In this document: positions 13,301 through 14,565 of the stretch, one piece after another
How the letters are laid out: each line of letters opens with the position of its first letter
Position numbering within the stretch: position 1 is the first letter of the stretch
Program-made: the position numbers and the translations under genes
From: a virus
Reading direction: 5' to 3' (one strand)
Virus genome (UHGV): UHGV-0143632
Length of the DNA stretch: 24,923 nucleotides
Notes under the pieces: generated by a model
Told to the model about the DNA's origin: nothing
Database searches by the model: none
The model's input: only the letters and a program-made list of their open reading frames with translations

Positions 13301-14389
13301 TTACCCCCTGAAACCCGGCGGAATTTCGGTGTCCGGTTCAGAAATGTGATTCACGCAACGCAGGCTGACTGCGCCAGCCTTCGGCAGCGACCACGGATTT
13401 TCGAAATTCCTGTTCGGGCCAAAAAACGTCGATGCCTGCTGAACAAATTCAGTTCCCGCTTTCCCGGTAGCCTCCAGGTATCTTGCGTAACGCCTCACGC
13501 CATCCAGCACGACATCCGGTGACACCCCTTCGCGTAATCTGGCCCTCCAGGCATTGAACGCGGATTTCTTCGGGTTTGACCCTGCCCGATGCGGATATTC
13601 ACGCCAGACCCGTTCGAACACGTCAGGATAATCAACTCGTCCCGCAGACGGTCCCGGCATCGCCCGGGTTAACCCAATCGGCTTCCCGCTCATCGCGGAA
13701 TCGGCTTCAGGCTGCTGCGGTTGGCGTTGTTGCTCCGGTTCGACGATCAGCACCTGCTGCACACAACGCCCGGAATCTGCTTCCGGTGTCGTGCCAGCTG
13801 GTCCTGGACGTTCAGTCAGAACAGGACAAAAATCCCCCTGCGGGTCCGTGGCGATTTTTTCGCCATGGACCAGAAGGGTTTTATCCCTTTCCTGTTCTTG
13901 TTCTTGTTCCTGTTCCTGTTCTTGGCTTGAAAGGGGCTCTGAAGGGGCTTCAATTTTCCGACATGATTCACGTCTGACATCCAGGTGGAAATCATCCTTA
14001 TATCTATCATAAAAGGATGATAAAAAAGGATTTTCCAGCAACGCGGAATATTCATTTCTTACCCCAGCACAACGGTTATCGCCAGGTTTCAGCGATTCAC
14101 CAACCTGCCATGCTGCCATTTCATGCACCCATACAACCTCAGAATCATGGTCATAGCTGCAAAAACCAGCCTCGCAAGCCATTTGAAGCCCCTTAGAAGC
14201 CCCTTCAGGAGCAAGTCCGGTTTCGTGAGCAATGTACAAAACAGGCAGGTAATAAAGGCCCAGCATATTGGAATGAGGCGAGGTCATCATATACAACGCC
14301 ACTACCATACATTCCGGACCAGACTTCCTTAGTTTTCGCCCTGTATCGCCTAACCAGAACTGAGGTGAAATTGTTGCGTAATTACGCAT
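13301..14389 (-). CDS. Replication initiator (lambda O-like role), with internal repeat region and an (EQ)n linker
   Basis: 362-aa ORF between cII and the DnaC-like gene; contains one copy of a repeated DNA segment (13640..13737) and a hexanucleotide repeat encoding SSQEQEQEQEQEQE. Confidence 0.55.
   Translation of the reverse strand: MRNYATISPQFWLGDTGRKLRKSGPECMVVALYMMTSPHSNMLGLYYLPVLYIAHETGLAPEGASKGLQMACEAGFCSYDHDSEVVWVHEMAAWQVGESLKPGDNRCAGVRNEYSALLENPFLSSFYDRYKDDFHLDVRRESCRKIEAPSEPLSSQEQEQEQEQEQERDKTLLVHGEKIATDPQGDFCPVLTERPGPAGTTPEADSGRCVQQVLIVEPEQQRQPQQPEADSAMSGKPIGLTRAMPGPSAGRVDYPDVFERVWREYPHRAGSNPKKSAFNAWRARLREGVSPDVVLDGVRRYARYLEATGKAGTEFVQQASTFFGPNRNFENPWSLPKAGAVSLRCVNHISEPDTEIPPGFRG
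13640..13737. repeat. Iteron-like repeat copy 1 (inside the initiator gene), containing the palindrome GGGTTAACCC
   Basis: cagacggtcccggcatcgcccgggttaacccaatcggcttc ... aggctgctgcggttggcgttgttgctccgg; near-identical copies lie at 14420..14565. Confidence 0.7.
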
Positions 14390-14419
14390 AGTCCCCTCGC
14401 ATACAAGATTTACTCCATA

Positions 14420-14565
14420 CCGCAGACGGTCCCGGTATCTCCCGGGTTAACCCAATCGGCTTCAGGCTGCTGCGGTTGGTGTGACTGCACATCTTCACAG
14501 ACGGTCCCGGTATCTCCGGGTTAACCCAATCGGCTTCAGGCTGCTGCGGTTGGTGTTGTTGCTGG
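14420..14565. repeat. Iteron-like repeat copies 2 and 3 (tandem, just upstream of the initiator start)
   Basis: Two tandem copies of cagacggtcccggtatctc(c)cgggttaacccaatcggcttcaggctgctgcggttggtg. Confidence 0.7.

Follow-up and report, generated by a model that had tools for sequence, protein, structure and literature searches.

A triplicated segment in the replication region of Eru4-type Stx phages: a probable copy-number-variable recombination scar derived from initiator linker DNA

In phage lambda the replication origin is contained in the initiator gene itself: ori consists of four 18-bp iterons inside gene O (39034-39118), at a spacing of ~20-24 bp, which are followed by an AT-rich region. 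Lambdoid phages also carry the scars of module exchange, found at mosaic joints and accompanied by the shuffling of initiator N- and C-domains. Among Stx phages, the Eru types are classified by their proteins, phage 75/02 Stx being the Eru4 reference, and the replication of Eru phages is stated to be wholly uncharacterised (Fagerlund et al. 2022, PMC8951638); that paper contains neither the word iteron nor the term origin of replication, and it does not describe the repeats considered here. The locus presented below bears three copies of a conspicuous segment in and near an initiator gene. The segment is probably a lineage-specific duplication of DNA coding for the initiator linker, later amplified in tandem, and would represent a recombination scar and not a set of origin iterons.

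The window analysed is the whole 24,923-nt stretch of the UHGV virus genome UHGV-0143632. Around the array, the minus strand displays the early-right gene order of lambdoid phages (Table 1). As in lambda, cII is followed by the initiator and then by the helicase loader, there are repeats within the initiator gene or close to it, in the part that separates the N- and C-terminal domains, and an oop-like antisense terminator is present at the 3' end of cII; this is a plus-strand intrinsic terminator at 14651-14678, homologous to the lambda oop/cII 3' region. The cII stop codon marks an abrupt end of the homology to lambda, and a sigma-70 scan of the leader revealed no promoter for an oop-like RNA. 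Differently from lambda, the initiator is not a homolog of O: it has no match in the Pfam search and is assigned to phrog_1701, which covers its full length, with further matches to phrog_25210 (residues 1-190), phrog_3729 (158-362) and phrog_18526 (209-362). The protein is composed of an N-terminal domain (~1-157), an (EQ)n tract with a Q/P-rich linker, and a C-terminal domain (~250-362) with a DnaT-like tail. Its AlphaFold single-sequence model is poor (mean pLDDT 48.9), and residues 212-251 are without predicted structure. The searches agree with the identification of the cII and initiator genes in the original prediction.

Table 1. Genes, repeat copies and candidate iteron clusters in the replication region (coordinates of the window)
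Feature	Position	Strand	Remarks
cI-like repressor	15375-16082	+	
Cro-like protein	15040-15318	-	
cII	14627-14923	-	Pfam Phage_CII, E = 6.5e-26
Leader, cII stop to first repeat	14564-14626	-	carries the ATG and first ~16 codons of the small ORF
Small ORF, 76 aa	14382-14612	-	phrog_2751
Upstream copy A, distal	14498-14563	-	short form, 1-nt deletion
Spacer separating tandem copies A and B	14483-14497	-	from sequence alignment
Upstream copy B, nearer the initiator ATG	14420-14482	-	short form, without the 23-nt segment; contains GGGTTAACCC and CCCGG-N6-CCGGG
Replication initiator, 362 aa	13301-14389	-	phrog_1701 "DnaD-like helicase loader", E = 4e-153
Candidate iteron cluster 1	14183-14208		two 11-bp GAAGGGGCTTC-type repeats; gene nt 184/195
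Candidate iteron cluster 2	13931-13953		two 11-bp repeats, same motif inverted; gene nt 440/451
Internal copy	13642-13734	-	initiator residues about 219-249 (QQRQPQQPEADSAMSGKPIGLTRAMPGPSAG), inter-domain linker
DnaC/IstB-like ATPase	12554-13294		

One copy of the segment inside the initiator gene and two in tandem between cII and the initiator start had been proposed from the sequence, and this triplication is borne out by repeat search and alignment. The upstream copies are identical over 41 nt (14442-14482 and 14516-14556, 100% identity) and follow each other with a period of 74 bp; the internal copy matches copy B over 49 nt with 92% identity (13642-13690 and 14420-14468), and a 30-nt stretch is found in all three copies with 87-93% identity (13645-13674, 14423-14452 and 14498-14527). 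At the thresholds used, Tandem Repeats Finder did not report the 74-bp array of ~2 copies, which is documented by the two former methods. The distance from the internal to the upstream copy is 778 bp. The repeat unit has a GC content of 60-65% and is characterized by a perfect 10-bp palindrome and a neighbouring 5-bp inverted repeat; each copy contains GGGTTAACCC once, which makes exactly three occurrences in the window, with ~0.39 expected even when one mismatch is tolerated, and GAAGCNGATT occurs five times, always within the replication module, against 0.33 expected. The internal copy contains 23 additional nt, located between two GAAGCCGATT decamers (13676-13685 and 13699-13708), and copy A is one G short (CCGGAG versus CCGGGAG). 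A perfect palindrome with an inverted repeat is typical of protein-binding sites, and this was counted among the points against a recombination scar.

Over 13250-14700 the window has 97-98% identity to Escherichia phage PhiR5_2, to Shigella phages 75/02 Stx and POCJ13 and to phiSTEC1589-Stx1c, and the segment comprising cII, the small ORF, the initiator and the DnaC-like gene has 97.5% identity to phage 75/02 Stx; the module corresponds to the replication region called "Eru4", which is that of Stx phages such as Shigella phage 75/02 Stx, POCJ13 and PhiR5_2. Six phage records, corresponding to four phages, show the same arrangement, as do 81 of 5426 complete E. coli genomes and about 35 IMG/VR contigs. 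As the layout recurs in these records, genomes and contigs, the array is genuine and not an assembly artefact. The leader DNA is equally restricted: within phage records and complete E. coli genomes it is confined to this module, being present at one site each in 81 of the latter, the same number that carries the array, and in only six records among phages.

Relatives of the two parts of the initiator gene indicate which copy came first. Among 80 loci related in the C-part, 20 are ~100% identical and constitute the lineage of the window, and the other 60, at 72-74% identity, carry an N-domain that is either of the Tritos type or 78% identical to that of the window; in none of these 60 could an upstream match to the gene's own linker be found. 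Tritos-type phages have only the 3' part of the initiator gene in common with the window, at ~82% DNA identity, and a different N-domain. The block common to the window and to the Tritos-type and L016-type genes, at the same ~82% identity, includes the internal copy, and the boundary with the Tritos-type genes falls ~60-140 nt upstream of the internal copy, outside of it. Upstream copies are also absent from the 74 more distant loci among 80 relatives of the N-domain. Intact relatives with the same N- and C-domain families (74-78% identity), among them loci L016-L023 with an N-domain 78% identical, have neither an upstream copy nor the GGGTTAACCC palindrome. The homologous linker in Tritos and L016 reads GGGTAGTCCC, in which the palindrome is not kept, and the palindrome is mutated in some upstream copies within the lineage as well (CCCAGG in L002, CCCGGAAATTACGGGG in L106). 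Upstream copies are closest to the internal copy of their own lineage. A mobile or dispersed element was considered and rejected, the exact 19-mer core being found in IMG/VR solely in the upstream-plus-internal arrangement. Since upstream copies are missing from relatives that keep the internal one, these comparisons mark the internal copy as ancestral and the upstream copies as derived, in one lineage only.

The state with upstream copies is thus derived with respect to the outgroups and its source copy can be identified, as would be required of a duplication. The setting resembles that of mosaic-joint scars in several respects: the initiator gene consists of two modules, and its N- and C-parts are found elsewhere in different combinations, the duplicated piece comes from the linker, near the module boundary, and lambda homology stops at the cII stop codon. 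Unlike such scars, the window has a tandemly amplified coding fragment and direct repeats flanking the N-domain, and the actual Tritos-type boundary does not coincide with the internal copy.

The array is variable within the lineage. At 21 of 30 loci two upstream copies are present with a 90-bp period, and six loci have a single copy; three copies are found once at 90 bp and once, in strain 23CRST047, at 113 bp, and the window is alone in having two copies at 74 bp. The 90-bp period arises from a 16-nt tandem unit in the spacer, ATGTGCAGTCACACCA, which is present in most relatives, and the 113-bp array of 23CRST047 retains the 23-nt segment. Match spans in complete E. coli genomes, mostly 337 bp, in several cases 247 bp and in two 492 bp, agree with these array types. 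The single-copy form is a hybrid: its left flank is that of copy A and its right part that of copy B, the outcome expected from unequal crossing-over. Genomes carrying differing arrays are otherwise 97-100% identical. In strain SW071619 the upstream copy is fused to the internal copy, with the junction within GATTGGGTTAACCCGGG; the whole N-domain is gone, the annotation lists a pseudogene, and two sister strains have the same feature layout. The locus hence behaves as expected for direct and tandem repeats, with variation in both copy number and length and with recombinant products. Indeed, it resembles variable-number tandem repeats in its one to three copies, in the alteration of the period by small indels, in the hybrid single copies and in the deletion product; differently from ordinary ones, its unit stems from the coding sequence of the adjacent gene, and a further copy lies at a distance inside that gene, so that recombination can inactivate it.

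In L006/23CRST047 the long-form upstream copies share the lineage-specific variants CCTGAT and GGGAGATGCC with that genome's internal copy, which could reflect gene conversion, a recent event or younger duplication, or selection for identity. In a small sample, the last upstream copy has 7 segregating sites in 45 nt and the internal copy 2 in 45, the other rows being distorted by indels; these counts give only a hint that the upstream copies are under relaxed constraint. Each of the lineage members examined has at least one upstream copy, and none is a zero-copy Eru4 module; this universal retention carries little weight, because the genomes have diverged by merely 0-3%.

The small ORF that overlaps the array was regarded in the original prediction as a by-product of the duplication. 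It begins 15 nt past the cII stop, is open in nearly all variants and crosses the two upstream copies in two different frames; its stop overlaps the initiator start in the window and lies 20 nt upstream of it in most relatives. Its first 28 residues (MEQYTGIILPHLEEFRQQQHQPQQPEAD) are the near-constant part, and beyond them the frames diverge. Database proteins with its N-terminal peptide are 42, 46, 48, 51, 58, 62, 72, 76, 88 or 102 aa long, and the full range of products, in differing frames, is 41-102 aa. The upstream ORF of the long-form variants (L006, P0002) follows the initiator's own frame through the linker and ends exactly at the end of homology, a combination that bears the signature of a truncated gene fragment. 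The 90-bp period, which leaves the small ORF open across the array, was also listed among the points against a recombination scar.

A functional small protein, of which the repeats would be merely the coding sequence, might account for an ORF that starts so close to cII and remains open, for the constancy of residues 1-28, for the preservation of the reading frame by the 90-bp period and for the existence of a separate PHROG family of unknown function, phrog_2751. However, past residue 28 neither frame nor length is conserved, in L006 the ORF already ends after 41 codons, no Pfam or NCBIfam match was obtained, and all the 12 database proteins sharing the N-terminal peptide are short (42-102 aa) and from E. 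coli, so that this explanation appears very improbable. A source for the leader was sought with a hypothetical fusion of leader, linker and C-domain: among 5.8 billion proteins it gave 13 hits, none of them a longer gene with the leader peptide, and 12 being the short E. coli ORFs just mentioned, which bear that peptide. A remnant of a longer known gene was accordingly discarded, as no long protein starts with the leader peptide and the leader DNA is restricted to the module. The leader peptide was also considered as a diverged initiator N-terminus, owing to a faint M..Y..I..PH likeness, and this was rejected too, since 7.6% of shuffles score equally and the likeness is not significant. The changes of frame and length between relatives support the interpretation of the 76-aa ORF as a by-product of the duplication.

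A plausible course of events can be drawn for the scar. A stretch of ~90-100 nt, from AGCAACAAC...CAACCGCAGCAGCC to ...GGGACCGTCTGCGGGA, has been copied between cII and the initiator start, behind the short leader. The copying most probably took place by an unequal or illegitimate recombination that swapped or inserted replication-gene sequence, and the copy would then have been amplified in tandem. The copied stretch gives a pair of direct repeats on either side of the initiator N-terminal domain. Later remodelling, by slippage and unequal crossing-over, may have removed the 23 nt between the GAAGCCGATT decamers, introduced the 1-nt deletion, added or removed the 16-nt spacer unit and generated the arrays of one to three copies. 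The array would be today a substrate for recombination rather than a protein-binding element, with upstream copies that are presumably non-functional: copy number and period drift among near-identical prophages, the frame of the small ORF shifting along, and when an upstream copy recombines with the internal one the N-domain is deleted and the initiator inactivated. The alternative of a recombination scar, which the original prediction had also put forward, is therefore the one that agrees with an ancestral internal copy, lineage-restricted upstream copies of variable number and period, and a natural deletion product, and the repeat itself encodes no conserved product or structure.

The triplicated segment is in this respect a real but ordinary copy-number-variable scar, and some practical consequences follow. 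A recurrent "hypothetical protein" of Eru4-type Stx phages, phrog_2751, is explained as the by-product of a repeat array; annotation calls for caution, since array length and ORF differ among otherwise identical prophages; and a route of prophage decay becomes visible, in which a repeat-mediated deletion of the N-domain leads to loss of the initiator.

Structure in the pR transcript offers a different explanation, namely a cis-acting RNA element governing how the initiator is translated or how stable the transcript is. Each unit has CCGCAG...CUGCGG at its ends and can form a CCCGG-N6-CCGGG hairpin, and the fold of copy B reaches -29.1 kcal/mol (z = -1.96). However, the other copies and the whole leader have z-scores from -0.7 to +0.7, so that shuffling yields equally good folds, copy A has lost the pairing of its ends (CUGUGA), and copy number and spacing are variable. 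Overall, the z-scores of the units and the whole leader against shuffled sequences range from -2.0 to +0.7 and are not significant; given also the lack of any Rfam match in the region, the RNA element was rejected and ranks as the most improbable of the explanations considered.

The repeats could otherwise be auxiliary binding sites for the initiator, either origin iterons or sites for titration or repression as in P1 incA, whose copy number would tune replication. Their tandem copies are placed immediately upstream of the initiator, where ~25 relatives hold genuine 11-bp repeats, every member of the lineage retains at least one of them, and the palindrome with its inverted repeat and the module-specific recurrence of GAAGCNGATT would suit a protein-binding site. 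The details are, however, against this view. Iterons are expected as units of ~17-22 bp, in at least three copies with helical phasing; the present units measure 63-113 bp, their periods of 74, 90 and 113 bp are helically inconsistent, and the copies vary from one to three in near-identical phages. Unlike the lambda iterons, the units are GC-rich, vary in number and period, and only one of the three copies is inside the gene. No AT-rich unwinding region adjoins them, the only marked GC minimum, at ~13950-14070 within the gene, being away from all three copies. Nor are they conserved together with the DNA-binding domain of the initiator: L016-L023 and other N-domain relatives, including those with N- and C-domains of the same families, are without upstream copies or palindrome. 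GAAGCCGATT does not co-vary with that domain either, because it is also contained in Tritos-type genes, whose N-domain is unrelated. Auxiliary binding sites are for these reasons unlikely, and the placement of origin iterons outside the gene, as suggested in the original prediction, is not upheld.

A more general version would assign the upstream copies to other partners: they could be copy-number-variable control sites, acting by titration or handcuffing, for the initiator C-domain, the DnaC-like loader or a host factor, or the repeats flanking the N-domain could form a recombinational switch that disables the prophage origin. We regard this as distinctly unlikely. As control sites, the upstream copies would adjust both the replication of Eru4-type Stx phages and the stability of their lysogens, and array length would become an inherited setting of phage induction and toxin output.

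In preference to the scar, a different set of repeats inside the initiator gene is proposed here as a candidate origin. A pair of GAAGGGGCTTC-type repeats is present at gene nt ~184/195 in all the 80 N-domain relatives, which cover 48-99% identity, and a second cluster of two or three repeats is found at gene nt ~425-475 in nearly all of them. The second cluster occurs in either orientation, so that different peptides are encoded in different relatives, and at about 25 loci further 11-bp repeats are present in the non-coding leader, from -37 to -13. From 578 phased units in 72 distinct regions, the consensus (G/A)AAGCCCCTTC was obtained. Clusters at fixed positions, in either orientation and also in non-coding DNA, point to constraint at the DNA level. 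In the window, a local GC minimum of 33-38% is located between clusters 1 and 2, at about 13950-14070; the GAAGGGGCTTC repeats thus show both a positional conservation independent of coding and the flanking of AT-rich DNA. They are a better candidate for the origin than the triplicated segment, and the functional origin most probably lies inside the initiator gene, with inverted GAAGGGGCTTC pairs flanking the AT-rich stretch. Indeed, it is these clusters, spanning 13931-14208, and not the triplicated segment, whose layout is like that of lambda ori. The search for the origin is in this way redirected: a motif of 11 bp within the gene, common to the whole family, is a better place to look than the conspicuous 60-bp repeats.

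The decamer of the triplicated segment does not belong to this motif. Among the 578 phased neighbours of perfect 11-bp repeats GAAGCCGATT was found in no case, which, together with its occurrence beside an unrelated N-domain, led us to reject it both as a degenerate member of the 11-bp family and as a site for the N-domain. A limited likeness is nonetheless present, as GAAGCCGATT and the repeat of the family, GAAGCCCCTT, have the same base in 8 of 10 positions, and it was noted as a further point against a recombination scar.

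The decamer GAAGCNGATT occurs five times in the window, against 0.33 occurrences expected, and every one of them lies inside the Eru4-type replication module. Within the initiator gene it is read in two frames, encoding EADS and KPIG. The short-form and long-form copies of the linker-derived repeat are set apart by the loss of 23 nt between two GAAGCNGATT decamers. A larger rearrangement is found in Escherichia coli SW071619 (NZ_CM129853.1, locus 1160-1571), whose prophage initiator is devoid of the N-domain; this loss is due to recombination between the upstream and the internal repeat copies. 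The same annotation pattern is present in two sister wastewater strains from Galapagos.

The linker also varies at a second repeat: hexanucleotide units coding for (EQ)n differ in number from one near-identical phage to the next, so that initiator length ranges over 358-366 aa. Further along the protein, the last 25 residues or so (338-362, window 13301-13375) display a weak likeness to the tail at the C terminus of DnaT, a primosomal protein (PDB 2ru8, 6aep and 9zbt; E = 0.009-0.03); this likeness probably accounts for the "primosomal protein I" annotations of the homologues.

An 11-bp repeat, (G/A)AAGCCCCTTC, is found family-wide as two clusters within the initiator gene, both in the window and in relatives (loci L011-L090). 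Among these relatives both orientations occur, and in about 25 loci the non-coding leader just 5' of the ATG carries the repeat as well. No description of it was found in the literature searched. In Eru4-type prophages and those related to them, the clusters probably constitute the origin of replication.

Sequence features of the window
Feature	Position	Strand	Remark
GAAGCNGATT sites	13676-13708		stretch bounded by two decamers 23 nt apart
	13774-13783; 14454-14463; 14528-14537		
GAACAG/GAACAA hexanucleotide repeat	13889-13924	gene strand	codes for (EQ)n of the initiator linker
11-bp repeat clusters	14183-14208; 13931-13953		inside initiator gene
AT-rich stretch	13950-14070		between the two 11-bp repeat clusters
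Intrinsic terminator	14651-14678	+	antisense to cII 3' end
Rfam matches above gathering score	5095-5304; 5580-5773; 9414-9498; 9525-9599; 9560-9612	-	STnc100 sRNA (two), isrK, C4 antisense RNA, C4 a1/b1 target

The intrinsic terminator is homologous to the terminator region of lambda oop RNA; no convincing promoter for an oop-like RNA was seen in the leader. The five Rfam matches bear no relation to the triplicated segment.

Finally, the IMG/VR relatives L016-L023 combine a 78% identical N-domain with the linker and C-domain of the Tritos type, a phage type with a different N-domain. In L016, the one inspected, no cII-sized ORF precedes the initiator and a DUF1627-like gene, not a DnaC-like one, directly follows it; therefore, the initiator pairs with different neighbours.
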